Shown: positions 33,133-54,813 of the stretch, piece by piece
Numbering within the stretch: position 1 is the first letter of the stretch
Layout: each line of letters starts with the position of its first letter
From: Phytomonospora endophytica
GTDB lineage: Bacteria; Actinomycetota; Actinomycetes; Mycobacteriales; Micromonosporaceae
DNA length: 64,000 bases
Assembly: GCF_014202425.1 (NCBI RefSeq)
Contig: NZ_JACHGT010000021.1
Location: forward strand, 29,884-93,883
Direction of reading: 5' to 3'
Position numbers and translations under genes: made by a program
Notes under the pieces: generated by a model
Database searches by the model: none
Seen by the model: only the letters and a program-made list of their open reading frames with translations
What the model was told of the DNA's origin: nothing

Positions 33133-33262
33133 AAAACGTGAATCGCCCCAGGGGCCTCCCGGCCTCCGCCCTAAATTCGACCGTAGCCCGCCGTGAGGCG
33201 TGGGTGGCGAACGCGAACCGCCTTCCCTGTGGATAACCCACCGGTTATGTAGCCTGCGTGCT
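33131..33262 (+). other. Non-coding element X, copy 1 (about 130 nt); its 3' end carries attL, so the last ~16 nt are phage-derived
   Basis: About 85 % identical to the reverse complement of 59983..60110. Contains TTATCCACA (reverse strand, 33228-33236). The original 3' end GGTTGTGGACAACC is now found at 54811-54824. Confidence 0.5.
33233..33246. repeat. attL core ATAACCCACCGGTT
   Basis: Direct repeat of 54800..54813 (13/14 identical), lying exactly at the two ends of the phage gene block. Confidence 0.55.
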
Positions 33263-33841
33263 TCTGACCAGGTTCGGAGCGATTACGCCCGGTTCTGTGG
33301 CGTCGGTTTCGTACAGAACTATCCAGTTCGTCAAGAGCTGTTGGCGGTCCGGTGCTCCCGTGGGAGCACCCTCACAGTCGCCTAAGGCGTCGTCGGCGGC
33401 GCCTGCGGGTGGGGCGGGCCACTGAATCAGGCCGTCGTTGCCGAGCGAAAGCCCGGTGGGAACGGCGGTGTTGATCGCGAAGGCAACCCAATAGATCGTC
33501 CAGTTGCCGGTACTCGACCCGCGATAGGTCGTGACTTCCATGTTGGTGCGGGTTACCTGCCCGAGCGCAACGGTGTTGTTGTTCGGGGCGGTCGTGTAGC
33601 CGGTGACGAGTCCGACGACGTCGTTTCCGCCGTTGAGCGCGCGCGGGAATGTGAGTGTGCGGGTTTGGTTGCCGGTGGCGAGTTGGTTCACCAGGAACCG
33701 CCCGGCCATGATGTCGGTAGCCATCCCGAACGTGGCGAGCGCCGTTTCGGTGGCTTCGGCGAGTGCCCGAAACTGCGCCGGGCCGTTGGGCGGGTCGGTG
33801 CTCTCGGGGTAGGGCAGGGCGTATACGGGTGTGCTTCCCAT
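33245..33841 (-). CDS. Phage minor tail / hypothetical structural protein
   Basis: ATG 33839-33841 behind GAGGAGGAA. Last gene of the tail module, followed by hairpin GGTGCTCCCACGGGAGCACC. Confidence 0.4.
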   Translation of the reverse strand: MGSTPVYALPYPESTDPPNGPAQFRALAEATETALATFGMATDIMAGRFLVNQLATGNQTRTLTFPRALNGGNDVVGLVTGYTTAPNNNTVALGQVTRTNMEVTTYRGSSTGNWTIYWVAFAINTAVPTGLSLGNDGLIQWPAPPAGAADDALGDCEGAPTGAPDRQQLLTNWIVLYETDATEPGVIAPNLVRSTQAT

Positions 33842-33883
33842 GGCGCTTTCCTCCTCGGCTCTCATGGCGGGTGTGGGGGCGTT

Positions 33884-34663
33884 TTAGGGGGCGGACCAGT
33901 CGAGTTCCACGGCCCCGGATTGGGGGTCGGATGCCAGACCGGCGGCGGCCAGGAATAGCCCGGTGTCGTCGGGGGTGGCCAGCCCGAGCCCGGACACGGC
34001 GCCGTCGGCGAGGGACTGCGCCCATCCGGCCGGAAGGGGCAACCACGCTGCCTCGCCGACGGCGAGCGCACCGACGGCCGTCGGGCCGTCCACGATCGCC
34101 GGGGGCGCGCTCGTCGGCGCGGTCGCGGTGTGGGCGTAGGCGTAGACGGTCACGGGGCCTTGTGAGCCGCCGGGGAGGCGCCGGACCCAGATGCGCCCGG
34201 CACCGACGACGGCACCCGCGAGGGTGCCCGTGATGGCCGTGCCGTACCACCAGGCGCCTTGATTTGATCCGGCGCCGGATGGGTCGGATCCCTGCAACAC
34301 GTCGCGGCGGTCGGTGCGGGCCGAACCGTCGAGGTAGGACCCGGCGGCGGTGGCCGGGAACGTCGCTGTCCCGCTCGTCGGGGTGTCCGGCGGCGGGTTG
34401 GGGCCGGGGTCGGTGGTGGCGCCGAGCTTGCCCAGCGCGTACCACGTCCCGGCGGCGGTGGCGAGGATCAACACGACGTCGCCGACGGCGGGCGTGTAGG
34501 CGGCGAGATGCCCGACGGTGATCTCCCCACCGTCCAGGTTGACCGTGACGGCGCCGCCGTCCACGCCGGTCACGAGCGCGGTTCGCGCTTCTGTCGTTCG
34601 TGGACGGCGCAGGACGTCGGCGAGGTCAAGCGGCATCGCCGTCACCTCCTTCGGTGGGGTCAA
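33884..34663 (-). CDS. Phage minor tail protein (Gly/Ala/Thr-rich)
   Basis: Position in the tail module and composition typical of actinophage minor tail proteins. Confidence 0.4.
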   Translation of the reverse strand: MTPPKEVTAMPLDLADVLRRPRTTEARTALVTGVDGGAVTVNLDGGEITVGHLAAYTPAVGDVVLILATAAGTWYALGKLGATTDPGPNPPPDTPTSGTATFPATAAGSYLDGSARTDRRDVLQGSDPSGAGSNQGAWWYGTAITGTLAGAVVGAGRIWVRRLPGGSQGPVTVYAYAHTATAPTSAPPAIVDGPTAVGALAVGEAAWLPLPAGWAQSLADGAVSGLGLATPDDTGLFLAAAGLASDPQSGAVELDWSAP

Positions 34664-35789
34664 GGACGGTGATTCCGGATTCGAGCGCGCGGACGGTGTA
34701 GACGGCGGCGCCGCCTTCGGCGGTGAGCGGCATGTCGACGCTGACGAGTTGGCCGACGAACCGCAGGCGCGGGGTCGAGACGGTCACCGAGTCGAGTGGT
34801 TCGAGGAACGGGACGGGCACGGCCTCGATCCGGTAGAGCCGCTCGCGGCCCCTGATGAGACTGTCCATCCTGGTCTTGGCGGCGCGCTGCGCTTGCTTCA
34901 CCGACTTGATCAGCGGTGAGCTGTAGAAGGTCGGGACCCTCCCATAGGGACCGTCCCAGCGCGTCGGCGAGTTCGGGGTGACGTCGTAGGCGACGGCCTG
35001 CACGGCGGGCTTGTCGCCGTCGGCCTCGCCGCGCGCGACGACGGCGTTGTAGGCGCCGTCGCGACTGGCTACTTGCGACACTGCGAGCAGACCGCCGGCC
35101 GCGGTGCCCTGGAATGTCCACACGGGATCGGTCGGGGCCACCGGCGTCAAGGTGAGCGCGCCCTCGGGCCCGGCATATGCCTTGGCCTCCAAGGCATCGG
35201 CGAGCGCGGCCACGGCCTCCAACCTGGACTCCTCGTAGACGAGCCCGGCTGGTACCGCTTCGTCGGCGACGTCGAAGGTGGACAGCGGGAGCAGCCCCCG
35301 GCACAGGCGGCGGATCTCTGACAGGCACGTTGCGCCCCTTGGTGGCTTCCCGGCGGCGAGTAGCCGGGAGTCGTCCACAGCCGACATCCGGTCGAGGGCT
35401 TCCACCTCGATCGAGGCGCCGCCGGAGACCCAGGATCCGGCGCGGTTGCGGCGGTATGCCTCTTCGGCGTCGGTCTGCTGAATTCGGAACCAGCCCAGCG
35501 AGACCGTTTCGACGGCGCCGCCGGGGATGCGTACACCGCGCCGAATGTGCAGCTCTCCACCGAACGGGGTGAGCCCGTTCGCGCCGTCGGGGACGAGTTC
35601 GCCGGTCGGGCACGCGATCGTGCACGTGAGGCGGGCGCGGATGTCGTCGTCGGCGTCTTGCTGGACCTGTCCGTCTACAAGTGGCAGCCCGGCGGCGACC
35701 AGGCGCCCGGCGTACCAGAGATCGGCGGTCGTGACGACCTCGTGCGAGGCGGCCAGCGTCGCGGCGAACGCGCCGGAGTGGCCGATCAC
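34626..35789 (-). CDS. Phage tail protein (Tal/tip-like)
   Basis: GTGA overlap with the upstream gene. Sits after the Dit-like gene in canonical order. Confidence 0.45.
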   Translation of the reverse strand: MIGHSGAFAATLAASHEVVTTADLWYAGRLVAAGLPLVDGQVQQDADDDIRARLTCTIACPTGELVPDGANGLTPFGGELHIRRGVRIPGGAVETVSLGWFRIQQTDAEEAYRRNRAGSWVSGGASIEVEALDRMSAVDDSRLLAAGKPPRGATCLSEIRRLCRGLLPLSTFDVADEAVPAGLVYEESRLEAVAALADALEAKAYAGPEGALTLTPVAPTDPVWTFQGTAAGGLLAVSQVASRDGAYNAVVARGEADGDKPAVQAVAYDVTPNSPTRWDGPYGRVPTFYSSPLIKSVKQAQRAAKTRMDSLIRGRERLYRIEAVPVPFLEPLDSVTVSTPRLRFVGQLVSVDMPLTAEGGAAVYTVRALESGITVLDPTEGGDGDAA

Positions 35790-36598
35790 GCCGCACCGCC
35801 GGGGGCCGGGTCGCGCATGACGTCGAGCCACGTTGCCTTACCGGCGATGAGGTCGGCCCAGGTGTCCCAGTAGGCCACGACGTCGGCCCACACATAGGGG
35901 AAGGTCAGCAGGGACGGCGAGGGCGCGTCCACGGCCGTGAGCGGCAGTGTCCACACCCGACGCGGGTCGTCGCCGGTCTTCGGCGCCTGCCGCGTCTCCT
36001 CCACGTCGCCGACGAGCCAGTACCGCGCGGGCCACCCCCACGAGGGGTCCGGGCGGATCAGCAGCACCGGCACGGCACACAGCGCGCGCAGCGCGGCGGC
36101 GGCGGAGTCGGTCACGGTGCGGGCGACCATTTCAGACTCGGGCTCTTGACGTACCCCGATTACGGCAATCGCGGTCGCCGACAGCATCGGGCGCAGCACG
36201 GCCGCCGACCGGCCGTAGGCCATGCCCTCCCAGTCCACGACCTGCCAGCGTTGCGCGCTCTCGGGGTCGGTGGGGTCCTGCACCCACGGGCACCCGTCAC
36301 TGTCGACGGTGACCGGCTCGCTCGTCGGTCCCGGCGTCGAGGCGTTCCCGTCGGTGTCGTACCCGACGGCGAAGTACTCCACGGGCTGTCCAAACGGGAC
36401 CTCGTAGTCCACGACGAGCGCCGGGCCGGAGACCTCGATGCGCCACCCGCCCCGGACCGGCACGGTGCCCGAGGAGTCTTGCCGGTAGAGGGTGATCGTG
36501 GCGTTGTCGGCGCCGGGCGTGACGGTGATCTCCACGCGCGGGCACGGATCGGCGTCTTCGTAGGGGATGCAGGTGGGCGCGGCCGGTGGCGTGGTCAT
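35786..36598 (-). CDS. Phage distal tail protein (Dit)-like
   Basis: Immediately downstream of the tape measure gene and of the expected size (270 aa). Confidence 0.4.
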   Translation of the reverse strand: MTTPPAAPTCIPYEDADPCPRVEITVTPGADNATITLYRQDSSGTVPVRGGWRIEVSGPALVVDYEVPFGQPVEYFAVGYDTDGNASTPGPTSEPVTVDSDGCPWVQDPTDPESAQRWQVVDWEGMAYGRSAAVLRPMLSATAIAVIGVRQEPESEMVARTVTDSAAAALRALCAVPVLLIRPDPSWGWPARYWLVGDVEETRQAPKTGDDPRRVWTLPLTAVDAPSPSLLTFPYVWADVVAYWDTWADLIAGKATWLDVMRDPAPGGAA

Positions 36599-38160: not shown

Positions 38161-38173
38161 GGCGCACCTCCTC

Positions 38174-38491
38174 TCATCCCTTGCGGCGGGCGCGCTTGTG
38201 CGCCTCGTTCACCTCGTCCAGGACGGCGACCATCGCGCGCGCCTCACCAACGGTCAGGTCTCGCAGATCGACCGGGGAGCACTGGAAGGCGTAGGCCAGA
38301 CGCGCGCGGTTCATCACGCCGCCGCCGGGGTCCGTGTAGGGTCCGGCGGCTCCGCGTCCTCGTCGGCGTCCTCGCCGTCGGCGTCGTCCTCGTCGGACAG
38401 TGCGGCGACCTTCTGCCATCCGGCCATGGACCCGTTGTTGTAGATGTCGGTCAGCGACACCGGCTGTCCGGCGCGGGTCCGTGCCGACCAC
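38174..38491 (-). CDS. Putative -1 frameshift extension of tail assembly chaperone (GT-like)
   Basis: The ORF is in the -1 frame relative to the G-like gene and overlaps its last ~180 nt, matching the conserved G/GT arrangement. No canonical slippery heptamer was identified. Confidence 0.35.
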   Translation of the reverse strand: MVGTDPRRTAGVADRHLQQRVHGRMAEGRRTVRRGRRRRRGRRRGRGAAGPYTDPGGGVMNRARLAYAFQCSPVDLRDLTVGEARAMVAVLDEVNEAHKRARRKG

Positions 38492-38703
38492 TCCAGGACG
38501 GCGAGCCGCTTGCCGGGCTTGAGGTTCGCGCCGAACAGGTCGACGTTGGTCACGCGCTTGATGCGGTCCACTTCTGCGTACGACAGCTGGTCGAGTGACG
38601 GAACCTCGATGGGCCCGTACCTGTCCTGAATGGATTCCGTGGCGCCGGAGCCGGTCTCGGCCGGCACCGCATTGCGGGGGCTGGATCCCTTACGTGTAGC
38701 CAT
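38314..38703 (-). CDS. Tail assembly chaperone (G-like)
   Basis: Small acidic protein just upstream of the TMP. Its 3' part overlaps the -1-frame ORF 38174..38491. Confidence 0.5.
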   Translation of the reverse strand: MATRKGSSPRNAVPAETGSGATESIQDRYGPIEVPSLDQLSYAEVDRIKRVTNVDLFGANLKPGKRLAVLEWSARTRAGQPVSLTDIYNNGSMAGWQKVAALSDEDDADGEDADEDAEPPDPTRTPAAA

Positions 38704-38706
38704 TTC

Positions 38707-39093
38707 TCACACTCCCCTTACGGTGTCGCAGATGGACTGCATGTCTCGGAAAAACGCGGCCAGCCACAGCGCCTCGGTCGCGCGGGCGGCGTCGGACAGG
38801 AACGGTTGCGCGGCGATGCCCCGGCGCGGCCATCCCCAGTGGATCGGCGCGGCGTAGGGGACCCGGGCGCCTCCGGCGCGCACCACGGCCGCACCAACGG
38901 CGCGGTTGCCGCGCACGGACGCGGCGAGCCGTCCCGTGCGGCGGGGCGCGGCGGCGGCCCCGGCGCGAGCGACGATCGCGGCGGCGGCGGCGTTGGCGTC
39001 CTTGAGGTCGGCGGCATCGGCCCCCGCCTTACGCAAGGTGCGCCGTAGCTGCGCGGCGCCGTCCACGTCGATCGTGAACGCCTCGCGGGCCAT
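38707..39093 (-). CDS. HK97 gp10-like tail-completion family protein
   Basis: Product MAREAFTIDVDGAAQLRRTLRKAG…PRRTGRLAASV…VPYAAPIHWGWP resembles the HK97 gp10 family. Confidence 0.45.
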   Translation of the reverse strand: MAREAFTIDVDGAAQLRRTLRKAGADAADLKDANAAAAAIVARAGAAAAPRRTGRLAASVRGNRAVGAAVVRAGGARVPYAAPIHWGWPRRGIAAQPFLSDAARATEALWLAAFFRDMQSICDTVRGV

Positions 39094-39776
39094 CACCCGC
39101 CCCCGCCGCCGGTGTAGGGCAGGGTCACAGACTTTGTGGCGGAGGCTCCACTCTGGCCGGTGACCTTGACGGTGAACGTGTTCGGCTCGGTGTAGAGGTG
39201 GCTGGCGGTTCCCGCGTCGGGGGTGTCGGTGGTGTCGTCGCCTTTGTCGCGGGCGTCGCCGAAGGCGATCGCGGCCGGGCCGCCGGAGACCACGGTGACC
39301 TTGACGGTCATGCGCGTGGTGTCGGTGGTGTCCTCCTCGGCGGTGAACACCGGGGCGGCGGGGAAGGCCCGGTCTACCTCCCCGATCACCGGAAGCTCCA
39401 GATCGGACGTGAGCTGTGCGGCCACGTCGCCGCCGATGTCGCCAAGACGGCATTGCACGCGCCCGGTGTAGGTCGGGCCGCCGTCGCTGTTGGGCGTCCA
39501 GGTGAAGGCCACGACCTCGGTTTCGTTGTCCCACAGGAAGTTGATGAACCCGTTGGGGTCGTCGAAGTCCTGTACAGCGGTGACCTTGAGCGTGCGGCCC
39601 GTCTTGAGCGTCGGGGCGTCGGAGTCGCCACAAAGGACCTCCAAGACTTCGCCGTCCTCCTCGTACTCCGTCGAGAGAGTGACGTTGGTGGGCTGGCACG
39701 AGAAGTCCACGGCGATCCCGCCGTCGGGGGTCAAGGTGAGCTTGCCCTTCTTGAGGCGGCTCTTGGTGATCGTCAT
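39093..39776 (-). CDS. Putative major tail protein with C-terminal Ig-like domain
   Basis: A 227-aa beta-rich protein with a Thr/Asp-rich C-terminal Ig-like repeat, in the major-tail position. Confidence 0.5.
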   Translation of the reverse strand: MTITKSRLKKGKLTLTPDGGIAVDFSCQPTNVTLSTEYEEDGEVLEVLCGDSDAPTLKTGRTLKVTAVQDFDDPNGFINFLWDNETEVVAFTWTPNSDGGPTYTGRVQCRLGDIGGDVAAQLTSDLELPVIGEVDRAFPAAPVFTAEEDTTDTTRMTVKVTVVSGGPAAIAFGDARDKGDDTTDTPDAGTASHLYTEPNTFTVKVTGQSGASATKSVTLPYTGGGGG

Positions 39777-39785
39777 CGGTTGCTC

Positions 39786-40127
39786 CTATGTGGTGACCTG
39801 CACGCGCACGCACGGCAGGAGGTTTCCGGCCGGGTCGGTCCCGGCGAGCTGGACGGGTTCGATGAGGTCGACTTGGCCGACCTCGCCGCACGCGGCGGCC
39901 AGCGCCGGGATAACGGGGTCCTCGGCGTCGACGACGGTTCCGTGATCGGCGCCTGCCATGACCACCCACACGTGCCAGACGACGGCGAGCGAACATCCGG
40001 TGAGGACGGTCGCCGACACCCACGACGGCCACCCGTCCCCGGCCTGCGGCGTGTCGGGCATGACCCGATACCCCGTGCAACCGGCCACCGTGGACACAGC
40101 GGCAGCGAGGTCTTCGCGGATGCCCAT
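39786..40127 (-). CDS. Head-tail adaptor-type small protein
   Basis: A 113-aa ORF with coding bias, between the connector and tail genes. Confidence 0.4.
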   Translation of the reverse strand: MGIREDLAAAVSTVAGCTGYRVMPDTPQAGDGWPSWVSATVLTGCSLAVVWHVWVVMAGADHGTVVDAEDPVIPALAAACGEVGQVDLIEPVQLAGTDPAGNLLPCVRVQVTT

Positions 40128-40129
40128 AA

Positions 40130-40447
40130 GCCCATCACCGCGATCCGCAAAGGGCCCTCTAGCCGCTCGATCTCGGCGTCATAGGCCGGGAGCCGGGTGG
40201 GTCCGTACTCATCGGACGGACCGGTCAGCCCCAGCGGGACCCCGCGCGCGGCGACCTCCCGGGCGCAGCGCCGCAGCAGCGCCGCGTAGGCGTCGGGCGG
40301 GAGGGTCCCGTCTGCGGGGAGTCGGCAGGCGCGAGACTGCGCGGCCGTCTCGGCGTCCAGGACGACCCCAAGCTCGGCGTCGTCCATTGAGGACGAGGCG
40401 AGCTTGAGCCACGCGCGGACCTGCTCTACGGTGGGATAAGCCGCCAT
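40130..40447 (-). CDS. gp6-like head-tail connector protein (3' end unclear)
   Basis: The N-terminal ~105 aa of ORF 39773..40528 (MAAYPTVEQVRAWLKL…EIERLEGPLRIA) look like gp6-family. The frame then continues as low-complexity text over the next gene. Confidence 0.4.
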
Positions 40448-45993: not shown

Positions 45994-46224
45994 CTATCCG
46001 TCCCGGTCGTCTTCGTCGTCGGGTTCTGCCCACACCAGGCCGATGTCCTCGCCGTCCGGTCCGAACTCGCGGACAGTGGCCCACCCGGGCCGTTCGTCGG
46101 GCGGGAGAAGCCCCAGGGTCTTGACGTGCTCGGTCAGCTCGCGCGTGCCCATGGTTTCGCTGAGCGCCTTGAGTTCGGCGTGTAGTGCCTCGTCGGTGGT
46201 GACCGGTGTCCCGTCAAGACTCAC
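45994..46224 (-). CDS. Small acidic protein, candidate immunity partner of upstream deaminase-like gene
   Basis: A 76-aa product whose start overlaps the stop of the 46214 gene by 11 nt. Confidence 0.3.
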   Translation of the reverse strand: MSLDGTPVTTDEALHAELKALSETMGTRELTEHVKTLGLLPPDERPGWATVREFGPDGEDIGLVWAEPDDEDDRDG

Positions 46225-47044: not shown

Positions 47045-47099
47045 GCAGGACGGCGCGCGTCCCCGGCAGGCCGCGCGCCGTTTCCTCACTGTGGAAGGT

Positions 47100-47321
47100 C
47101 TACACCGGTCGTTCCTCTTCGCCGCGCAGCACCGCGCGCGGGTTCACACCCGCCTGCGCGAGCCGCCGGGTCGCCTCGTTGCGCTTCTCGCACGGCCAGC
47201 CCCCGCAACCGGCCGTGCACCTCCTCGAATCGGGGTCGGACGCGTCATACCACCTGCTTCGGTGCTCGCCCCAGATCTCGTACCACTCGGCGGAACTCTT
47301 GCCGCCGAATGTCGTCGTCAT
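47100..47321 (-). CDS. Small Cys-containing phage protein (73 aa)
   Basis: ATGA overlap with the upstream gene. Product MTTTFGGKSSAEWYEIW…CTAGCGGWPC…. Confidence 0.4.
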   Translation of the reverse strand: MTTTFGGKSSAEWYEIWGEHRSRWYDASDPDSRRCTAGCGGWPCEKRNEATRRLAQAGVNPRAVLRGEEERPV

Positions 47322-47491
47322 GCCGGTGCCTTGCGTTCGTCCACAAGGGGGTCCACGCCGAGTTTGAGCATCGCGTCGCGGACGTCGGCGCGCCAGCGAC
47401 AGGGGTACGACGAGGCGCTGCATGAGCACCGGCCGCCCTTGATCCGCTGGTGTTTCTGGTATTCGTCCCAGAGGGTTTCGATGTCGCTCAT
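47318..47491 (-). CDS. Small phage protein (57 aa, below ORF-track cutoff as an independent start)
   Basis: ATGA overlaps at both ends. Product MSDIETLWDEYQKHQRIKGGRCSCSASSYPC…. Confidence 0.4.
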   Translation of the reverse strand: MSDIETLWDEYQKHQRIKGGRCSCSASSYPCRWRADVRDAMLKLGVDPLVDERKAPA

Positions 47492-47880
47492 GACGGCGGC
47501 GCCTCCGGCTCGCGCCAGCGGGACGGCGTGACGTTGAGGTCCAGCCGGGTGTTGTCGACCAGCCAGTACGAGACCGTCACCGGCCGGAAGGCCGTCAGCC
47601 TGTCCCGGAAGTCCTCGATGGACGTCGTGAACCGCGACCAGGCCCCGGGTTCCTTGATCTGCGGGCTGACGGCGTTGACTTCGGTCTCCAGCCACGCAAC
47701 GGCGTCATCGGCGGTGGCGCACGTCTTCGCGCGAAGCTCCCTCGGCTTGTTCAGCCACTCCGATGTGATCAGCGGCGGGAGGTTCGTCAACGGGTTGCGG
47801 CGGTCGGCGTCGGTGGCCTTGTTGAGCACGTCGCCGTGTCCGCGCCAGCGGTGGCAGATCCATTGGTCCTCGATGGTCAT
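47488..47880 (-). CDS. Hypothetical phage protein (130 aa)
   Basis: Coding bias. First gene of a translationally coupled trio. Confidence 0.4.
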   Translation of the reverse strand: MTIEDQWICHRWRGHGDVLNKATDADRRNPLTNLPPLITSEWLNKPRELRAKTCATADDAVAWLETEVNAVSPQIKEPGAWSRFTTSIEDFRDRLTAFRPVTVSYWLVDNTRLDLNVTPSRWREPEAPPS

Positions 47881-47967
47881 GGCATCCCCTGTGTGTGGTG
47901 GTGGAAGGCCCCGGCGGCTCGGAGGGGCGCCGCCGGGGCCGGTGTTGCGATCGGGGCGGGAAGGGGC

Positions 47968-48195
47968 CTACAGGCCCTGATAGCTCTGCACGAACGCGTC
48001 CAGCTCTTCGGCGCTGAACCGCAGTTCGGGGCCGTCGGGGTTCTTCGTGTCGCGCAGGGCGTAACCGCCGCCGGTGATCGGCGCGTACTCCACACAGGAG
48101 TCCTGCGTCCCGGGGTCGGACTGGTCACCGGTGTTGCCGCCGCAGGCGCGGACGTAGCCGCCGGACAGGTCACGGCTGTACAGATCGCTGCTCAT
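47968..48195 (-). CDS. DUF397 domain protein
   Basis: DUF397 signature …YVRACGGN…CVEYA…DTKNPDGPELRFSAEELDAFV…. Confidence 0.7.
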   Translation of the reverse strand: MSSDLYSRDLSGGYVRACGGNTGDQSDPGTQDSCVEYAPITGGGYALRDTKNPDGPELRFSAEELDAFVQSYQGL

Positions 48196-48788
48196 CGTGA
48201 TCTCCTTGGTGTAGGACGTCAGCCTCGGCCGACGTCGGTTCCGAACCTGGCCGGGCGCCGATGCTTCCTAGGGCCGAAGCGCCCGGCCAGGGGCTCGCGT
48301 TGGACTGTCCGCAGGGGACGCGAGGGCTCCGGGCGGTCGTGGGGACCGGCGCCGGGAGACGATCGACCGTGGTGCGTGTGGACAGTGCGGATACGTTGTG
48401 CCGCAGGCACATTCGAACCCGCCGCCTTCCGCCACGAAGTACAGATGTCGTCCGCCGTCCATCGCAGCTCCCTGCGGGTTGGACCGGGACACGGGCAGGT
48501 GGAAACCCGAAAAGAGGCCGCTCGGCCCCGATCAGGAAAAAGGGCCCGCGCCCCGGCGTGTGTACACCCGGCGCGGCGGGCACTGAGCCACCCCGCGCCG
48601 GGGAACTTCGGGACGAGGAAGGGGAGAGCGCCCACCAACGGGAATCCGGTAACCGACAACGTTCTCCCCTCCCTCCGTCATGTCGCCCGGGTGCTGACTC
48701 CCGAGGCTTCCGCCCTGCTCAGGGACGGTGTACAAGGGACAGTACGAAAGGAACGGTGCAGAAGCCACGACTCAGCGTGCAAGACACG

Positions 48789-48807
48789 TTGTCCCACCAC
48801 GGGACAA
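48789..48807. promoter_or_regulatory. Palindromic operator candidate TTGTCCC-N5-GGGACAA upstream of XRE gene
   Basis: Perfect 7-bp inverted repeat about 70 bp upstream of the 48878 start, in a 680-bp divergent intergenic region. Confidence 0.4.
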
Positions 48808-48877
48808 GCAAGATGGGGAGACGACTCCCCCACGCCAAGGGTTCTCATGTCGCGCAGTGATGCGGCATCCTGTGCTG

Positions 48878-49705
48878 ATGCCTGGACCGATCCTCACGCG
48901 TCGCCAGCTCGGCCGCCGTCTGCTCAACCTCCGTGAAGTCGCCGGAATCTCAGCGGGAGCCATCGCGCGAACGAAGCTCATGAGCACCAGCAAGCTTTAC
49001 CGGCTTGAGGCCGGAGAGATCGTCGAACCCGCCTGGGTCGAGGTCAAGGAACTGTGTGACATGTACGGCCAGAACCCCGCCAGCGATCTGAGCAAGGAAC
49101 TCGTCAGGATGGCAAAGGCGTGCCTAGAGGCCGGGTGGTGGGAGCCGTTCGGTTCCGGTGTGCCGAAATGGTTCCAGCTCTACCTTGAGCTTGAGCAGAT
49201 CGCCCACACGATCCGGACCTATGAGGTCGCCTACGTCACAGGTCTGTTGCAGACGGAGGCGACCATGCGAGCCCTGCTGTCGGCGAACCCAGCCCTTCAA
49301 GCTGAAGCCGTTGACAGCACAGTGGACCTTCGACTGAAGCGGCACCTGAACTTCTTCGCACGTATCCCGCTCCCCAGCCTTGAACTGGCGATTGACGAAG
49401 GCGCACTGCGCCGCGTCATCGGTGGCCCCGCAGCGCACGCCGAACAGCTTGAGCGCCTCTACACGATGAACAGCCGCCCGAACGTTCGCGTCTTCGTCCT
49501 GCCCGCGTCCGTCGGCGCCTATGCCGGGCAGGGGCAGCCGTTCACCCTGCTGGAATTCCCCGATGACCTAGATCCGGATGTGGTGTACTCGGAGGCTGCA
49601 ACGGGAGCGCATTACGATGAGTCGGCCGAAGCCTTCGCGAGCCGTAGGGCTACCTTCGGAAGCATGATCGCGCAAGCAGTGCCACTTGAGGAGTACCAGC
49701 TATGA
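48878..49705 (+). CDS. XRE-family HTH + DUF5753 regulator (only plus-strand gene of the prophage; repressor candidate)
   Basis: N-terminal HTH (LTRRQLGRRLLNLREVAGISAGAIA…LYRLEAG) and a DUF5753-like C-terminus. ATGA overlap with the downstream DUF397 gene. Confidence 0.7.
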   Translation: MPGPILTRRQLGRRLLNLREVAGISAGAIARTKLMSTSKLYRLEAGEIVEPAWVEVKELCDMYGQNPASDLSKELVRMAKACLEAGWWEPFGSGVPKWFQLYLELEQIAHTIRTYEVAYVTGLLQTEATMRALLSANPALQAEAVDSTVDLRLKRHLNFFARIPLPSLELAIDEGALRRVIGGPAAHAEQLERLYTMNSRPNVRVFVLPASVGAYAGQGQPFTLLEFPDDLDPDVVYSEAATGAHYDESAEAFASRRATFGSMIAQAVPLEEYQL

Positions 49706-49881
49706 AGCCTTCCCCCTGGCGCAAGTCCAGCCGCAGCGGTGGGAATCAGGGCCAGTGCGTCGAGGCCCGCACCAACGCGGGCCGTTTCGAGCTTCGCGAC
49801 AGCAAGCTTGCCGACGGCTCGCCGATCCTCGAACTCAGCGCCAACGACTGGCGCGGCTTTCTCAGCACCGTTACCCGCTGA
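49702..49881 (+). CDS. DUF397 domain protein (59 aa; absent from supplied ORF track)
   Basis: Product MKPSPWRKSSRSGGNQGQCVEARTNAGRFELRDSKLADGSPILELSANDWRGFLSTVTR is a textbook DUF397 partner of XRE-DUF5753 regulators. Confidence 0.7.
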   Translation: MKPSPWRKSSRSGGNQGQCVEARTNAGRFELRDSKLADGSPILELSANDWRGFLSTVTR

Positions 49882-49892
49882 CCGAGCATCTG

Positions 49893-49920
49893 AAGAGCCC
49901 CCGCGCTCGCGCGGGGGCTC
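49893..49920. terminator. Bidirectional hairpin AGAGCCCCCGCGC-TC-GCGCGGGGGCTCT
   Basis: Perfect 13-bp inverted repeat between convergent genes. Confidence 0.6.
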
Positions 49921-50059
49921 TTGTCGTCTCCTCCGGGCCGCAACCGTGAGGATCATTCGCGTTCCGGGTGGTTCTCGCGTGGGGTAGGCCGGTGCGGGGG
50001 AGAGACGGACAGGGGACGCGGGGTGTCCGGCCCGGGGCCGGAGGAAAAAACCGGGTGTC

Positions 50060-50764
50060 TCACCAGCGCGACGAGGGCGCCGTAGGCGCGTCGGTGGGTA
50101 GGCGGGGCGGGTTGGTGTACCAGTCGGCGACGTACCGCGCCCACTCGCGGGGCCGCTCGTCGGCGGCGCGGCGTAGGCACTCATCACGGCCGGGGTCCAC
50201 GAGTTCGAACACGGCGCCCGCGCGCACGTACGCGGCGACCTGCCCGCGCCCCGGTGCGGTGTGCACGATGTAGACGGTGCCGCCCGTGGGCGGGGTGGCC
50301 AGCAGCGAGCGGACGACGGCGGCGCGGGCGACGCCAGCGAGCCGCATGGGCAGCCGGTCACGGCCGTAGCGCTCGCCGCCGAAGCACTCCACCAGGTCGT
50401 CATAGTCCACGATGGCGTCCCCCTGCCCGGCGAGGTCGCGGGCGCGGGTGGTCTTCCCGCCGCAGGGCGGGCCGACGACCACGACCAGGGCGCCGGGGCG
50501 GCGCACGAGGGCGCCGGACTTCGTGTTGCAGGTCGAGCACGCGGCCCGCAGGTTCGCGGGGTCGTCGGTGCCGCCGTGGGCGCGCGGGATGATGTGGTCG
50601 ACGGTGCGCGCGTACCGGCCGCACACCCGCCCGTCGGCGCCGGGGACGAGGCACGTCCACCCGTCGCGGTCGAGGATGAACGCGCGCAAGCGGCGCCAGG
50701 CCCTTGTGGAGCCCGACGCCGCCAGCAGAGACATCGCGTGGTCTATCCGAAGAGGATCGAGCAA
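50060..50764 (-). CDS. HNH endonuclease fused to P-loop NTPase/kinase-like domain
   Basis: HNH motif (CGRYARTVDHIIPRAHGGTDDPANLRAACSTCNTKSG), then Walker A GPPCGGKTT and a kinase-like fold. Confidence 0.6.
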   Translation of the reverse strand: MLDPLRIDHAMSLLAASGSTRAWRRLRAFILDRDGWTCLVPGADGRVCGRYARTVDHIIPRAHGGTDDPANLRAACSTCNTKSGALVRRPGALVVVVGPPCGGKTTRARDLAGQGDAIVDYDDLVECFGGERYGRDRLPMRLAGVARAAVVRSLLATPPTGGTVYIVHTAPGRGQVAAYVRAGAVFELVDPGRDECLRRAADERPREWARYVADWYTNPPRLPTDAPTAPSSRW

Positions 50765-50985
50765 CCGATGAACACGGCCATGATGGACAGCAACGCGATC
50801 ACGTATCCCGCTAGTACCAAGGAAACTAGCTGCACGATGAGCCCGAACGTCGTCGTCCGAAATGGAATCCGCGGTTCCAGTCGGTGGGCGCCGGCGGGAG
50901 CAGGGTGCTCCATGATGGACAGGCCGGGGATTGTGGACTGGACGTCAGCGAAGCGGGCGTCCAGGTCGTCAGGCTGCTGCGGCAC
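50743..50985 (-). CDS. Small protein with C-terminal transmembrane helix (holin-like?)
   Basis: An 80-aa product with a C-terminal segment FGLIVQLVSLVLAGYVIALLSIMAVFIGCSILF. Confidence 0.3.
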   Translation of the reverse strand: MPQQPDDLDARFADVQSTIPGLSIMEHPAPAGAHRLEPRIPFRTTTFGLIVQLVSLVLAGYVIALLSIMAVFIGCSILFG

Positions 50986-51220
50986 TGGCGGTCGCCTCCT
51001 CGGAGATCTCCTCGGCGGGCAGGGCGGTGGTGAACACCAGTCCGCAGCCGCCGCACCGGTAGTGGGCGTGCATGCCGCATCCGCACTGGAAGTCGTCTAG
51101 GACGGCTTCCAGGATGGTCGCGATGGTCGGTGCCATCACGCACAGCAGGTCGGCGACGACGGCCGTGGTGGTGCGCTGCACGTTGGACGCGAGGCACTGT
51201 GGACAGGTCAAGTCGGTCAT
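50969..51220 (-). CDS. Zinc-ribbon (Cys-rich) small protein
   Basis: Paired CxxC motifs (CPQC…CGCG…CGGCG). ATGA-coupled to an upstream small ORF at 51217..51480. Confidence 0.4.
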   Translation of the reverse strand: MTDLTCPQCLASNVQRTTTAVVADLLCVMAPTIATILEAVLDDFQCGCGMHAHYRCGGCGLVFTTALPAEEISEEATASAAAA

Positions 51221-51457
51221 GATTCCCCCGGGCCGCTCAGGCGGCGGTTGAGTTCGTGGTGCCGTTCGTCCACGTCGGACGGTGTTTCGTTCGGGACGTC
51301 GTGCCAGCGGGAGGACTTCGGGAGTCCGCACCGGCAGTAGGCGGTTCCTCGGTGGTCGACCGGGACGGCCGGGTCCGGCCGGTAGGGATGCGGGCGGAAC
51401 GGCCGCCCGCATCCCCGGGGGTGGCTGGCGGCCACCCGCAGCCCGGCCAGCCACCGG

Positions 51458-52333
51458 TCAAGCGGCGGCGGGCAACCCACCGTCTTCGTCCACTTCGGGC
51501 AGCCCGGCGAAGTGCTCCGGGTCGAGCCGGTTGGGGCCTCGGTGGTACGGGTTGGGACGGTCGGCGGGTCGGGAGATCTCCGGAGGTCCGACCGACGCGA
51601 ACGCGTCGGCGGGTTCTTCGTCTTCCCCGTACCGTCCCGTACCGTACGAAGCCGGATAGCTCGCGTCCCCGTGGTCGGCGACCTCGGCCCCGTGGTCCGC
51701 CCGTGGTCGGCGAGCGCCGATCTCGGCCAGGGTCAGCAACCGCATCCCGGCTTCCCCGGGTGTGCGCTGCCCCTTGCGCTGGTTGCACTCGCGGCAGGCG
51801 GTGACCATGTTGGACGCCCCGGCGGCGGTGTGTGGGTCGACGTGGTCGAATTGCTGCCCCGTCGCGCCCCTGGTGTCCTTGGGGTTGGTCTCCCGGGCGC
51901 AGTAGCGGCACATCCCGCCGTCCCGCTCGCGCAACTGGCGACGCAACCCCCGGTCGTCGCGCTCGGCGGCCTGCCGGTTCTTAACGGCGGCCTCGACTGC
52001 GTCGGGCTGGAAGTCCAGGTAGTCGTGTAGCAGGTAGTCGAACCCGAACGGCCACCGGTTGCGGTGCACTTCCATGCACCGGCACCTGTCGCCGCGCTGA
52101 TGCAGTAGCGGCGCCTTGCCGTGCTTTGTGGACACCAGCATGTCCAGCAGCGGCGGCGTGCTGAACTCCCGCACCATCGCGCTGGTAAGGAACCCGTTGG
52201 AGTAAGCCAACGACGCCTCCCCCAGCAGCGCCGACCACGCCCCGAACAGCGCCAAGAACTTCTGCGGCGAGGTCGCCAGGACCCGGAACTTCATGTTCCT
52301 GGCGGCCTCGGCCTGCTTCTTCACCCACACCAT
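51458..52333 (-). CDS. HNH endonuclease domain protein
   Basis: C-terminal HNH motif (CRYCAR…FDHVDPHTAAGASNMVTACRECNQRKG). Confidence 0.6.
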   Translation of the reverse strand: MVWVKKQAEAARNMKFRVLATSPQKFLALFGAWSALLGEASLAYSNGFLTSAMVREFSTPPLLDMLVSTKHGKAPLLHQRGDRCRCMEVHRNRWPFGFDYLLHDYLDFQPDAVEAAVKNRQAAERDDRGLRRQLRERDGGMCRYCARETNPKDTRGATGQQFDHVDPHTAAGASNMVTACRECNQRKGQRTPGEAGMRLLTLAEIGARRPRADHGAEVADHGDASYPASYGTGRYGEDEEPADAFASVGPPEISRPADRPNPYHRGPNRLDPEHFAGLPEVDEDGGLPAAA

Positions 52334-52759
52334 TCAGGAGCCGTCCTTTCTCGATCGGCGCCACGGGCGCCAGCGGGAGGATTGCTTGGGCACGGCGGCG
52401 TGTTTGCCCCATGCGGAGAACGTGACCCTGATGCCGTGCATGTGGACCTCGGCGATGCGAAAGCCGGGGTCGGGGTGGAAGGTGTGGGCGGCCGGTGCAC
52501 CAATCTGCGGGAGCACCGACCAGGCGTCTAGATCGGACTGTGTGCGTAGCCGGACGCGCGCGGTGCCGTCGCCAAGAGACACCAGCGCGGCCGGGAGCGG
52601 CGCGCCGTCGGCGACCAGTGCGGCCAGTGACGCCAGTAGCGCCGCCCACCGGTCGGAGTCGGTTACATCGTGGCCGCGCCGTTCGTCGGCGAGCCGGGCG
52701 AGGGCGTAGGCGGCTCCCTGTAGGGGGCCGTACACCTCGGCGCGGTGAACACCGGTCAC
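52334..52759 (-). CDS. Hypothetical phage protein
   Basis: A 141-aa ORF with coding bias, in the early region. Confidence 0.4.
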   Translation of the reverse strand: MTGVHRAEVYGPLQGAAYALARLADERRGHDVTDSDRWAALLASLAALVADGAPLPAALVSLGDGTARVRLRTQSDLDAWSVLPQIGAPAAHTFHPDPGFRIAEVHMHGIRVTFSAWGKHAAVPKQSSRWRPWRRSRKDGS

Positions 52760-53033
52760 CGTGGACCGTTCCCGGGCTTGCGGCGTCGCTGTGGAGCGAT
52801 CGGCGGCAGGGGCGGCGGGTTGGGGAAGGTGAGCGCGGGTCGCTCGGGTGCGGCGGTGGTCGCGCGGTGGACCATCGCGGCTATGGCCGACTCGGGGACG
52901 CGGAAGGCGCCGCCGGACGACGGGCGGACGGCGGTCAGGACTCCCGACTTGATCCAGCCGTACACAGTGGACCGGCTGGCCTTGAAACGTGCTGCAACGT
53001 CCTTGACCTTCCAGTATGGGTCTTGCGTGGACA
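52756..53033 (-). CDS. Excisionase/MerR-like helix-turn-helix DNA-binding protein (Xis candidate)
   Basis: TTG start behind GGAAG. HTH segment WKVKDVAARFKASRSTVYGWIKSGVLTAV. Adjacent to the integrase gene. Confidence 0.5.
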
Positions 53034-53414
53034 ACGTGGCCTGCTTCCTGCGGTTTCGGGCGCGCCCGCCGATCGGACGCGAGAAGTCCACAGAGTGTGC
53101 CAGTTCGGTCACCGACCGTCGATCTTGGACAGAACGTGTTTTCTCGTTCTGGTGAGAAACGGTGAGAATCTCACCGATCAACCCCCTTTTTTGACCCCAG
53201 AAATGGGTGTAAATATTGATACGTTTCTGGTGAAACCGGCTCATTCTTCGCATTAGTTGTATGCGTCGCACAAGGGTCGTTGTGGGGATCCTGAAGACTT
53301 GATATTTCCGGGCAGGGACTCGCGTCTAACGGCGTGTCGCTTCCCCACGGGAAACGCTTCCCAACGGGAAGCGCCCCCGCCGACGAGTCGGCGGGGGCGC
53401 GGTAATGGGTTGGG
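53034..53414. promoter_or_regulatory. int-xis intergenic control region
   Basis: The most AT-rich stretch of the window (53161-53290). Tandem palindromes TTCCCCACGGGAA and CTTCCCAACGGGAAG (53339-53372) and hairpin CGCCCCCGCCGACGAGTCGGCGGGGGCG (53377-53404) lie downstream of int. Confidence 0.45.
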
Positions 53415-54650
53415 TTAGGCGGCGGCGGTCTCCGGCCTCTGCCGGGCCGACAGGCGCGCCAGGAGCGCCGTGGACACTGTCGCCACGGCGGCGGTATCAA
53501 CGGTGTCGTCATGGATGTAGGTTCGCGTGCTGCGCTCGCTTGAGTGCCCGATCACGGCGGCCAGGGTCCGGCCGTCCACGCGCGCCTTGCGCATCTCCGT
53601 GGCGTAGGTGTGCCGGTAGTCGTGCCCGGTCAAGGTCTCAAAGTCGGGAATGCGCGCCCGCTCGGCGGCCTTGCGCATGCGGTTGACGAACGTCCCCCGG
53701 TGCAGGTGGCGCCCGTCGCGGTCGGACAGCAGCACCGCGCCCCGGTGCTTCCCCTCGGCGCGGCCGGTGATCAGCGGCGCCAGCTCCGGCGCGTAGGGCG
53801 CCATGCGGAAACCCGCCTTACTCTTCGGGCCGACCTGCAACACGCGCTTGCCCGTGCCGTCGGGCTTGAACACCCACCGCACCTCGAATGACGCGATGTC
53901 CTCGTGAACGGACTCGCCGACCAGCAGCCCCGCCCACTCGCTGTAGCGCAGGCCCGTGGTCACCGCCACGACGGCCGGGTCATAGGCGTCCGGGCCCATG
54001 AGTGCCAGCTCATAGAACAGCGCTTCAAGGGCGCCCAGCCCCAACGCACGGCCCTCCCGCCCGTCTCCGCAGGGCTCGGGCACCAGGGACAACGGGTTGC
54101 GCTCCAGGACGGCCGGGGAGCCGTCCAGGCCGGGCCGGGAGAGATCATCGAAGACCGGTTCGAGCAGCCCCCGCCGGTAGGCGCGAACCGTCGTCGGCGC
54201 CAGTTTCCCACGCTCGCCGCCGACAGAGAGCAGATGGTCTTGCCACCCCTTCAGAACGGCCCCGGTAGCCTCCTGCGGCCAGTAGGCCGCGAGACCGTAT
54301 ACCGCATTGTCGATATGGGCGGCGGCGTTTCGCCGATACTGCGTCGCGCTGTACGCCTTGATACGGCCGTTGCGCTCGCGGTCGTCGATGCTGGCGTGAA
54401 TGAGTTCGCCCAGCTTCGGGCCGACCCCGACCGCGCCCGGGACGAGGTAGTCAAAGCCCATCGCGCGCAACTGCGCACGGTTCGGCCACCGATTCCGATT
54501 GAGGTCCACCAGCGCCTTGAAACGCTCCGCCTCGCCCGCGTCGGTGAACGTCTGAGATTGCGCCGCGCCGTCCCGCGTACCGCCCTCGTTCCATTTCACC
54601 CGGAGCGAGGTCTCACCGTTTTTACGCAGGCGTGACTCTATGCTGGCCAT
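53415..54650 (-). CDS. int: Tyrosine-type phage integrase
   Basis: Catalytic R (TGLRYSE), HxxR (HDYRHTYAT) and Y (STRTY) motifs. The SAM-like N-terminal domain is present. Confidence 0.85.
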   Translation of the reverse strand: MASIESRLRKNGETSLRVKWNEGGTRDGAAQSQTFTDAGEAERFKALVDLNRNRWPNRAQLRAMGFDYLVPGAVGVGPKLGELIHASIDDRERNGRIKAYSATQYRRNAAAHIDNAVYGLAAYWPQEATGAVLKGWQDHLLSVGGERGKLAPTTVRAYRRGLLEPVFDDLSRPGLDGSPAVLERNPLSLVPEPCGDGREGRALGLGALEALFYELALMGPDAYDPAVVAVTTGLRYSEWAGLLVGESVHEDIASFEVRWVFKPDGTGKRVLQVGPKSKAGFRMAPYAPELAPLITGRAEGKHRGAVLLSDRDGRHLHRGTFVNRMRKAAERARIPDFETLTGHDYRHTYATEMRKARVDGRTLAAVIGHSSERSTRTYIHDDTVDTAAVATVSTALLARLSARQRPETAAA

Positions 54651-54799
54651 AGCTGGCCCTCCATGATCCGTAGCGGTTCAGGGAGTAACCCGTCTGTCGC
54701 CAAACTGAGCGGGTGCTCCCAAGGTGCTCCCGAAATCTGCCGGGAGCACCGGAGGGCCAGCGTAATGCCTGGTCAGAGGATTGCCAAGACCGGCGCGTC

Positions 54800-54813
54800 A
54801 TAACGCACCGGTT
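54800..54813. repeat. attR core ATAACGCACCGGTT
   Basis: Direct repeat of 33233..33246. It is followed by GTGGACAACC, the host-type 3' end of element X, 27 nt before the ATPase start codon. Confidence 0.55.

Follow-up and report, generated by a model that had tools for sequence, protein, structure and literature searches.

A Compact Siphovirus-Type Prophage of Phytomonospora endophytica Distantly Related to the Smallest Known Actinophages

The Locus and Its Boundaries

Between an SPFH gene and a DUF3686 ATPase gene of Phytomonospora endophytica, an actinomycete of soil and plants to which exact protein matches assign the DNA, lies an insert of 21,581 bp, occupying positions 33233-54813 of the 64,000-nucleotide stretch analyzed here (the window, to which all coordinates refer unless another sequence is named). 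The insert carries a packaging and head set, comprising the small and large terminase subunits (TerS and TerL), portal, protease and capsid, together with a long non-contractile tail set; it also encodes a tyrosine integrase and an Xis-like protein, and it is bounded by a 14-bp direct repeat. We consider this block to be a small temperate siphovirus of P. endophytica (Micromonosporaceae) in its integrated state, with a probability of roughly 85%. As a siphovirus-type prophage of the HK97 fold whose distant relatives are the smallest actinophages known, it is of a known kind. An earlier note, made from the letters of the same DNA, had proposed a prophage of about 21.6 kb with copies of this repeat at its ends (33233 and 54800), and the junctions indeed match an empty site in a sister species.

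The genes on either side allow the insertion to be delimited precisely. On the left stands an SPFH/Band-7 gene (30963-33038, +; 691 amino acids, aa) and on the right a DUF3686/AAA ATPase gene (54849-59831, +; 1660 aa). With the SPFH protein as query and one genome per species, 80 loci from many actinomycete genera were recovered, and in 80 of the 80 the SPFH gene is followed directly by the DUF3686 ATPase gene. The closest of these loci, L001 from Phytomonospora sp. NPDC050363, has flanks 86-92% identical to those of the window. L001 12302-12400 aligns with window 33151-33249, while L001 from 12386 onward aligns with the window from 54802 onward, and both alignments overlap on one core, ACAACCCCCCGGTT (L001 12384-12397). 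The unoccupied site in relatives that the prophage proposal implied is thus found both in the adjacency of the two genes and in the single core at their junction. Joining the left arm of attL, the core and the right arm of attR gives a reconstructed attB, ccctgtggATAACCCACCGGTTgtggacaacctgcccgcccgagcgaggagc, which is identical to L001 outside the core. Because this reconstruction matches the single-core empty site of L001, the 14-bp repeats are true recombination junctions and delimit the full 21,581 bp. Moreover, since the element is missing from the sister species, its acquisition was recent.

Chance repetition of the core is ruled out by the empty-site alignment together with dinucleotide-preserving shuffles: at no more than one mismatch the 14-bp pattern has three copies in the window against 0.01 expected. 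The third copy (59994-60007, -) is part of a paralogous copy of the intergenic unit considered below. Integration into a tRNA gene was also rejected, as no tRNA lies at either end of the element, though a paralogous prophage does use a tRNA-Leu. The element is packed from core to core, such that the last tail gene ends with a stop codon abutting or overlapping the attL core and the integrase gene begins 150 bp from attR; the earlier placement of the cores exactly at both ends, with the integrase beside the right-hand copy, was therefore sound. The two neighboring genes also belong to a longer conserved run, in which a 229-aa gene, the SPFH/Band-7 gene (691 aa) and the DUF3686-AAA ATPase gene (1660 aa) are contiguous in 80 of 80 actinomycete loci (window 30187-33038 and 54849-59831; L001-L080). 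A literature search found no paper mentioning DUF3686.

In base composition the element differs modestly from its surroundings. Its G+C content is 69.7%, compared with 70.8% in the left flank, 71.8% in the right flank and about 70% in the whole window. Mean G+C at third codon positions (GC3) is 0.870 for 23 element genes vs. 0.928 for 23 host genes (Mann-Whitney p=1.8e-5), and the tetranucleotide distance from the host profile is raised at about 34-54 kb. The interior had been described as visibly AT-richer than flanks of 72-75% G+C; the difference is real in GC3 and tetranucleotides but was overstated, overall G+C being only 1-2 points lower, and the flank values were too high.

Gene Content and Organization

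Genes were called with a codon-usage model trained on the window and with frame plots, and were scanned against Pfam, PHROGs, NCBIfam and PADLOC (Table 1). Read on the minus strand from attR, the order is integrase, Xis-like gene, 141-aa gene, 291-aa HNH gene, 87-aa and 80-aa open reading frames (ORFs) and HNH-P-loop gene, after which the plus-strand Xre/DUF397 pair intervenes. It continues with a second DUF397 gene, the 130-, 57- and 73-aa ORFs, the deaminase and its 76-aa companion, TerS, TerL, a plus-strand 89-aa ORF, portal, protease and capsid, and closes toward attL with the gp6-like, 113-aa, major tail, gp10-like, chaperone (with a 47-aa ORF), tape measure, Dit, Tal, minor tail and fibre genes. 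The statement that every gene except the Xre locus is on the minus strand accordingly applies to most genes, with three on the plus strand (Xre, DUF397 at 49702-49881 and the 89-aa ORF at 43889-44158). The gene list first drawn up lacked the deaminase cassette and both HNH nucleases, as well as the second DUF397 gene and the ORF that runs antisense between terL and portal.

Sensitive profile searches find phage homologues for the portal, protease, capsid, TerL, TerS, tape measure, major tail and Tal-like proteins, as the earlier note had called them, and the Xis-like and integrase calls stand (HTH_17, 1.9e-8; PF00589, 5.4e-15). No sheath or baseplate-wedge match indicative of a contractile tail appeared in any search. 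The connector and chaperone calls of the note are weaker: the gp6-like connector aligns with relatives, one of which (L128) has a homologue with a weak Phage_connect_1 match, the gp10-like protein reaches only E=0.016, and no canonical slippery heptamer for a G/GT frameshift was found at the chaperone gene. The Dit-like assignment of 35786-36598 is made from its position after the tape measure gene. The 206-aa tail fibre protein (33245-33865) gives a weak Gp53-like_C match and is 91% identical to a fragment in L124. The capsid is about 30% identical to capsids of 70-kb Mycobacterium phages, to which it is closer, and the genome is therefore mosaic.

Among the non-structural genes, the integrase retains readable catalytic motifs, namely R (TGLRYSE), HxxR (HDYRHT), H (GHSS) and Y (RTYIH). 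The N-terminus of the 291-aa HNH protein has a weak "replication initiation" match (phrog_2447, 5.6e-4), and the HNH-P-loop protein (50060-50764) is a candidate terminase-associated HNH. Pairs of Xre and DUF397 genes have been proposed as actinobacterial toxin-antitoxin modules (Makarova 2009, PMC2701414), in which an Xre-helix-turn-helix (HTH) protein of about 300 aa with a C-terminal domain precedes a DUF397 gene; the element has this arrangement, and the pair recurs in the paralogous prophage. The Xre protein is the best candidate for the immunity repressor, given its opposite strand and its presence in both paralogues. No convincing operator repeats were seen between the DUF397 and Xre genes, where 676 bp (48196-48871) separating the minus-strand DUF397 gene from the plus-strand Xre gene hold no convincing ORF and presumably contain divergent promoters. 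The lowest G+C of the element, 64-67%, is at 48-50 kb. Nearby, the 130-aa protein (47488-47880) has no match in Pfam, PHROGs, PADLOC or the phage collection (tblastn), and the 73- and 57-aa ORFs (47100-47491) have a W-x-E-x(n)-C-x(2-5)-C...P-C-type pattern in common and look paralogous, with no family match. Rfam gave no match within the element; elsewhere in the window, and unrelated to it, are an msiK RNA motif (27212-27269, -; 59.5 bits) and a tRNA-Thr(TGT) (61458-61531, -).

Table 1. Features of the element from attL to attR, with window positions. L001 is the empty locus of Phytomonospora sp. NPDC050363, L123 the paralogous prophage and L124-L128 further relatives.
Feature	Position	Strand	Evidence and remarks
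attL core ATAACCCACCGGTT	33233-33246		left junction; host homology to L001 stops at 33249
Tail fibre / virion structural protein, 206 aa	33245-33865	-	N-terminal motif common to Emperor gp18 and RRH1 gp15 virion structural proteins
Inverted pair of GGTGCTCCC near attL	33351-33370		candidate arm-type recombinase sites
Minor tail protein, 229-259 aa	33884-34663	-	phrog_16436, 3.8e-12; same position in L123, L124, L125
Tal-like tail protein (DUF5047)	34626-35831	-	PF16466, 5.1e-10; phrog_1887 "tail protein", 5.2e-42
Dit-like distal tail protein, 270 aa	35786-36598	-	phrog_16363, 8.6e-19; phrog_11649 "tail protein", 3.3e-9
Tape measure protein, 521 aa	36595-38160	-	phrog_8462, 1.7e-51
47-aa ORF downstream of chaperone, -1 frame	38174-38317	-	77% / 72% conserved in L123 / L124
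Tail assembly chaperone	38314-38703	-	phrog_15555, 4.5e-4
HK97 gp10-like protein, 129 aa	38707-39096	-	PF04883, E=0.016, below cut-off; 48-76% conserved in L123-L127
Major tail protein, 227 aa	39093-39776	-	phrog_4574, 3.9e-21
gp6-like head-tail connector	39773-40447 (homologous part 40130-40447)	-	73-75% identity to L123, L124
Head-tail joining protein, 113 aa	39786-40127	-	assigned by position; conserved in L123-L127
Major capsid protein, HK97 fold, 426 aa	40616-41896	-	PF25209, 7.7e-7, 30.1 bits (cut-off 27); phrog_2263, 5.7e-42
Prohead serine protease S78, 214 aa	42034-42678	-	PF04586, 1.2e-14; frame plot, gene model
Portal protein, 392 aa	42675-43853	-	PF04860, 2.7e-44; phrog_12, 3.3e-43
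TerL	43868-45586 (homologous part codons 1-476)	-	phrog_9, 8.5e-55
Antisense 89-aa ORF, conserved, between terL and portal	43889-44158	+	92% / 73% identity in L123 / L124
TerS, 122 aa	45546-45914	-	phrog_15169, 1.3e-11; PF23931, 5.6e-5, below cut-off
Putative immunity protein, 76 aa, acidic	45994-46224	-	overlaps deaminase stop by 11 nt; 44% identity in L123
SCP1.201/DddA-like deaminase, 276 aa	46214-47044	-	PF14428, 5.8e-20, 72 bits vs. cut-off 25
Two small Cys-containing ORFs, 73 and 57 aa	47100-47491	-	73-aa ORF 37% identical in L123
130-aa protein	47488-47880	-	46% identity in L124
DUF397 (BldB-like) protein, 75 aa	47968-48195	-	PF04149, 1e-12
Xre-HTH/DUF5753 regulator	48872-49705	+	PF19054, 1.4e-42; PF13560, 1.4e-9; phrog_9908, 2.5e-53
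DUF397 gene	49702-49881	+	DUF397 motif in translation; 4-nt overlap with Xre gene
HNH endonuclease fused to P-loop (AAA_33-like) domain	50060-50764	-	PF01844, 4.5e-12; homologous to Emperor/RRH1 HNH; family-wide
80-aa protein, strongly hydrophobic C-terminus	50743-50985	-	Kyte-Doolittle 19-residue maximum 2.58; 76% identity in L123
Conserved 87-aa ORF	51217-51480	-	conserved in L123
HNH-domain protein, 291 aa	51458-52333	-	PF14279 and PF01844; 51217-52333 pair 89% / 84% identical in L123
141-aa protein	52334-52759	-	44% identity in L123, corresponding position
Xis-like / MerR-type HTH_17 protein	52756-53091	-	PF12728, 1.9e-8; phrog_66 "excisionase and transcriptional regulator", 8e-9
Tyrosine integrase, 411 aa	53415-54650	-	PF00589, 5.4e-15; phrog_1, 2.5e-24
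Three GGTGCTCCC between integrase start and attR	54712-54750		candidate arm-type sites / putative int promoter region
attR core ATAACGCACCGGTT	54800-54813		host homology to L001 restarts at 54802, 36 bp upstream of ATPase ATG

A Paralogous Prophage and Further Relatives

A paralogous prophage, L123 (GCA_016862855.1, BONT01000008.1, 1482-21569), lies on another P. endophytica contig at the 3' end of a tRNA-Leu(CAG), beside fhaA, and is identical to a prophage predicted in IMG/VR (L083, IMGVR_UViG_2861520306_000001, 21,243 bp). The two elements share gene order throughout, the deaminase and small gene cassette and the Xre-DUF5753/DUF397 pair. At the nucleotide level they are 84% identical across the HNH region (2.4 kb) and 71% across the structural region (12 kb), and protein identity amounts to 84% for TerL, 83% for TerS and 70% for the portal. 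In contrast, the integrase (28%), Xre (29%) and deaminase (33%) proteins are far less alike, the deaminase cassette is inverted, and the attachment site of the paralogue is a tRNA gene. Such a contrast would be expected if the two were related phages that differ in immunity and in attachment site. The portal ORF of the paralogue is called as 613 aa, extending over the protease gene.

Soil metagenomes and metagenome-assembled genomes supply further relatives, whose TerL is 45-74% identical and many of which lie on contigs of 20-22.6 kb. One such contig (L125) spans integrase through tail genes within 21.8 kb, and another (L126) begins at terS. Because so many relatives occupy contigs of this length, about 21 kb is the normal genome size of the lineage and not a deletion remnant. 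A literature search for Phytomonospora phages found no paper.

Integrity of the Element

Several observations weigh against the block being the genome of a temperate phage. No endolysin or holin was found in the element by Pfam (at E up to 5), PHROGs, NCBIfam or PADLOC, and profile searches detected no recognisable replication genes besides the weak replication-initiator match. The gp6-like connector has exchanged its TGA stop for TTA at 40127-40129, which extends its ORF by 117 out-of-frame codons to 39773. The TerL ORF likewise lacks its ancestral stop (TTA at 44156-44158), a change common to the paralogue L123. Finally, no free attP junction turned up in the IMG/VR viral or JGI metagenome collections. 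The earlier description of the virion module as complete holds, but a complete prophage is not shown, considering that no lysis gene was found and that the gp6-like stop is lost.

The loss of the TerL stop is accounted for by an overlapping gene. At the ancestral stop position L124 has TGA and both P. endophytica copies have TTA, and over its last ~95 codons the TerL ORF overprints the 89-aa antisense ORF, at the corresponding place of which a 90-aa gene is called in L124. Between 43900 and 44100, 19 of the 21 substitutions separating the window from L123 fall on third codon positions of the antisense ORF, and for that reason the plus-strand ORF is the selected gene of this interval, with the tail of TerL overprinted. 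A TerL C-terminal extension in the form of a real domain was rejected on the same substitution phase, which points to selection on the plus-strand ORF. Systematic TGA-to-TTA recoding at gene ends was rejected as well: the TTA in TerL, read on the opposite strand, gives the antisense gene its TAA stop, a TTA in TerS is dictated by the overlapping TerL codons for the conserved "RY", and only the gp6-like change is left as an unexplained single substitution. In the relatives L123 and L124 the gp6-like gene ends in ...VVMG-TGA overlapping the next ATG, where the window reads GGC TTA TGG, a stop loss unique to the window copy. This change could impair head-tail joining, with a sequencing error as the alternative explanation, and on its account it is uncertain whether the window copy is still viable.

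Such losses might instead be the mark of a cryptic, decaying prophage, truly integrated yet yielding no infectious particles or lysis, which may persist by means of its toxin-immunity and Xre/DUF397 modules. We hold this to be a serious alternative at somewhat less than even odds. It draws on the gp6-like stop lost in the window copy only, on the failure to find a lysis cassette, on the portal ORF of the paralogue that runs over the protease gene to 613 aa, and on the addiction-type modules present in the element. Opposed to it is the fact that all other genes are full length compared with relatives; specifically, the structural genes other than gp6-like and TerL match their L123 and L124 homologues in length. 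Substitutions in terL relative to L123 are overwhelmingly at third codon positions, indicative of purifying selection that acted until recently, and the acquisition deduced from the empty sister site is recent. Decay also sits poorly with a lysin-less state that is family-wide, including 20-22.6-kb metagenome contigs that resemble complete genomes.

The search for a lysin was extended beyond profiles. A tblastn search with the lysins of Emperor and RRH1, small actinophages compared with the element below, was negative, as was a PDB sequence search with the two tail genes nearest attL. The Pfam annotation of the relatives L123-L128 is likewise devoid of an endolysin or holin. Because the absence is common to relatives, including those on 20-22.6-kb metagenome contigs, it is a family trait rather than a lesion of the window copy. 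One could also imagine a helper-dependent satellite of the phage-inducible chromosomal island (PICI) type, which would build its own particles but obtain replication or lysis functions from another phage (e.g., the tRNA-Leu paralogue) or from the host. Small size, the lack of recognisable lysis and replication genes and a related prophage resident in the same genome would suit such an arrangement, but we deem it improbable: the element encodes TerS, TerL, portal, protease, capsid, connectors and a full tail, at least part of which known satellites lack, the co-resident paralogue is also without a lysin, and the free-living RRH1 and Emperor are likewise without recognisable replication genes.

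More improbable still, to the point that we give it hardly any weight, is a domesticated particle cluster akin to a gene transfer agent (GTA) in the service of the host. The likeness lies in a head-tail cluster without lysis genes, as in RcGTA, whose lysis genes are located elsewhere in the genome. A domesticated cluster is difficult to reconcile with the integrase, Xis-like gene, att repeats and presumed immunity regulator carried here, with a locus left unoccupied both in the sister species and in all the other genomes compared (80 of 80), with a heteroimmune paralogue at a different att site, or with a 21.6-kb genome that equals the contig size of its relatives.

The Deaminase Cassette

As cargo, the element carries an SCP1.201/DddA-like deaminase. 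Residues H198-x-E200 and P224-C225...C231 (PC-x5-C) are invariant across four homologues. In an AlphaFold2 model (3-sequence alignment, mean pLDDT 65.6) the protein comprises a helical hairpin (residues 8-99), a disordered proline-rich linker and a compact C-terminal alpha/beta deaminase domain. A Foldseek structure search returned non-significant matches (cytidine deaminase CDD1, E=0.18); the hairpin matches WXG100-type and many unrelated hairpins weakly, at E ~1, with no WXG or YxxxD/E motif by eye. An exhaustive HMMER search recovered 211 cluster representatives, and because the majority measure 240-290 aa and their alignments span both domains, the family consists of short stand-alone proteins and not of the tips of large polymorphic toxins. 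By tblastn, neither the 50,697 deposited phage genomes nor the PLSDB plasmids yielded a homologue.

In the window, in L123 and in the metagenome contigs L129 and L131, four contexts independent of one another, the deaminase gene is followed by a small ORF that overlaps its stop. The deaminase pair adjoins the Xre-DUF5753/DUF397 genes in L131 and L123, and an Xre-type gene and a Bro-N gene in L129. In the two metagenome contigs, short SCP1.201-like deaminases with overlapping small ORFs (L129 2879-3855; L131 359-1470) lie near Xre/DUF397, NUDIX and Bro-N genes. These contexts suggest that deaminase and small ORF form a mobile cassette typical of actinobacterial prophage immunity regions. Deaminase toxins of the SCP1.201 clade have been described together with immunity proteins (Iyer et al. 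2011, PMC3239186), and the arrangement in the window fits a toxin-immunity pair, albeit the 76-aa gene has no match to a known Imm family in profile searches. The deaminase could here serve as an interbacterial toxin, an addiction module or an exclusion device.

A more ambitious interpretation, which we consider unlikely though worth stating, is that the window element, its paralogue and the 20-22.6-kb soil relatives represent an undescribed lineage of very small temperate actinophages that would complete its cycle without canonical endolysin or holin, and in which, in Phytomonospora, polymorphic DddA-type deaminase toxin-immunity cassettes would occupy a hot-spot by the immunity genes as weapons or exclusion devices. 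Release from the cell might then depend on an unrecognised lysis protein, on host autolysis in a mycelial host, on the antisense 89-aa gene or on the 80-aa membrane protein.

Attachment Sites and a Repeated Intergenic Unit

The attB core is near-palindromic, reading ATAACC-CACC-GGTTGT in P. endophytica and ACAACC-CCCC-GGTTGT in L001. The reconstructed attP holds ATAAC-GCACCG-GTTAT, with an inverted pair TGGTCAGAgg / cTTCTGACCA 20-30 bp away. The lone mismatch between the two cores is at position 6, with C in attL and G in attR, C being the host allele, as L001 and the third copy show. The mismatch admits two readings: strand exchange to the right of position 6, within CACCGGTT, or a segregated heteroduplex at position 6. 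The motif GGTGCTCCC occurs six times in the window against 1.16 expected, every copy inside the element and five of the six within 120 bp of its ends; the clusters at both ends are candidate arm-type sites.

The attB core sits in an intergenic unit of ~110 bp, copies of which recur in the surroundings of the DUF3686 ATPase gene. In L001 two tandem copies stand upstream of the ATPase gene (12149-12259 and 12302-12408). In the window one copy is split by the prophage (33150-33249 plus 54800-54830) and a further, inverted copy (59984-60094, -) lies within a stretch of ~510 bp missing from L001. At the end of every unit stand two TGTGGAYAA motifs in direct orientation, spaced 18 bp apart, and it is exactly between these two that the prophage core sits. 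The motif, which we take to be the complement of the DnaA-box consensus TTRTCCACA, has four occurrences in the window, all within these units. The proposal that such DnaA-box-like pairs are a conserved trait of the SPFH-ATPase intergenic region was rejected, the pairs being present at this locus only in Phytomonospora. The unit is a candidate operator, DnaA-titrating site or repeat resembling a miniature inverted-repeat transposable element (MITE). Just downstream of the SPFH gene, 33081-33132 forms a perfect tandem array of about six copies of the 9-mer GGGTCGCCT, which is absent from L001.

A Proposed Life Cycle and Its Significance

Taken as the genome of a temperate siphovirus, the element would have arrived when its integrase recombined an attP site (...gcgcgtcATAACGCACCGGTTatgtagcc...) with the near-palindromic attB core ATAACC-CACC-GGTTGT, 36 bp upstream of the ATPase start codon. 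Lysogeny would be maintained by the divergent Xre-DUF5753/DUF397 operon. On induction, integrase and Xis would excise a 21.6-kb circle, restoring an attB predicted to read ...cctgtggATAAC[C/G]CACCGGTTgtggacaacc... and leaving a circle junction at attP predicted to read ...gcgcgtcATAAC[C/G]CACCGGTTatgtagcc.... TerS and TerL, probably aided by an HNH nuclease as in HK97-like cos phages, would package the genome into protease-matured HK97-fold capsids, which would join a tail of ~80 nm whose length is presumably set by the 521-aa tape measure protein. The deaminase and its overlapping small gene would represent cargo of the toxin-immunity type, outside the virion programme.

For a genus without described phages, the element provides a prophage with sharp boundaries, whose attL and attR are mapped and whose attB and attP have been reconstructed. 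It also extends the small-genome actinophage group to the Micromonosporaceae and to a temperate form of ~21 kb. Rare actinomycetes might gain an integration vector from its compact, mapped integrase and att system, and the SCP1.201/DddA-like deaminase, with the inhibitor proposed for it, is a candidate in base-editor mining. The family-wide lack of a recognisable lysin poses a concrete and testable question. None of this alters the current understanding of phage biology. What goes beyond the routine is the lysin-less family, the deaminase cassette and a heteroimmune paralogue in the same genome, the functional role of each of which is not established.

Comparison with Known Systems

Among characterized phages, the element can be set beside Emperor, a temperate Gordonia phage (Emperorvirus) of 16.6 kb. 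TerL (41%), tape measure (41%), major tail (36%) and HNH (43%) proteins are recognizably similar between the two. Emperor is likewise a small siphovirus with a tyrosine integrase, repressor, excisionase-like HTH protein and HNH nuclease, and it shares the order connector, hypothetical, major tail, hypothetical, chaperone and a tape measure of ~525 aa. However, Emperor has three annotated endolysin genes inside its head module and a capsid gene of 1,860 bp, whereas the window element encodes protease and capsid as separate genes and has no lysin that we could find. The portal, capsid, minor tail proteins and integrase of the window element are without BLAST-detectable similarity to those of Emperor, and the element is ~5 kb larger, carrying deaminase and DUF397 cargo. 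Clusters of temperate small Gordonia phages are on record (bioRxiv 10.1101/2022.02.05.479200).

RRH1, a lytic Rhodococcus phage of 14.3 kb, is related to a comparable extent (TerL 40%, tape measure 39%, major tail 28% identical, with a related HNH), and the N-terminal motif of its last tail gene is shared with the element. Unlike the element, RRH1 lacks integrase and immunity genes, is annotated with an endolysin, and belongs to another capsid/portal lineage. TerL likeness of similar degree extends to Arthrobacter phages of ~15.5 kb. In shared gene content the element, with BLAST matches to Emperor or RRH1 in 4 of ~30 genes (a rough proxy for phams), stays below the clustering criterion of at least 35% cited in 10.1101/2022.02.05.479200 and so outside the small-genome actinophage clusters (Emperor, RRH1, Arthrobacter AN type).

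The coliphage HK97 shares with the element the families of S78 protease, HK97-fold capsid, gp6-like and gp10-like connectors and terminase-associated HNH. It differs in its size of ~40 kb and in its lysis and replication modules, and the likeness between the two is at the family-profile level only. The deaminase, in turn, resembles DddA/SCP1.201 toxins in its PF14428 match, in the HxE and PC...C zinc-site signature and in the small overlapping downstream gene in the immunity position. It departs from them as a 276-aa stand-alone protein with an N-terminal hairpin, rather than the C-terminus of a large type VI secretion system (T6SS) or RHS toxin, in its PC-x5-C spacing and in having H, not K/Q, two residues after the catalytic E, as well as in its location in the presumed immunity region of a prophage.

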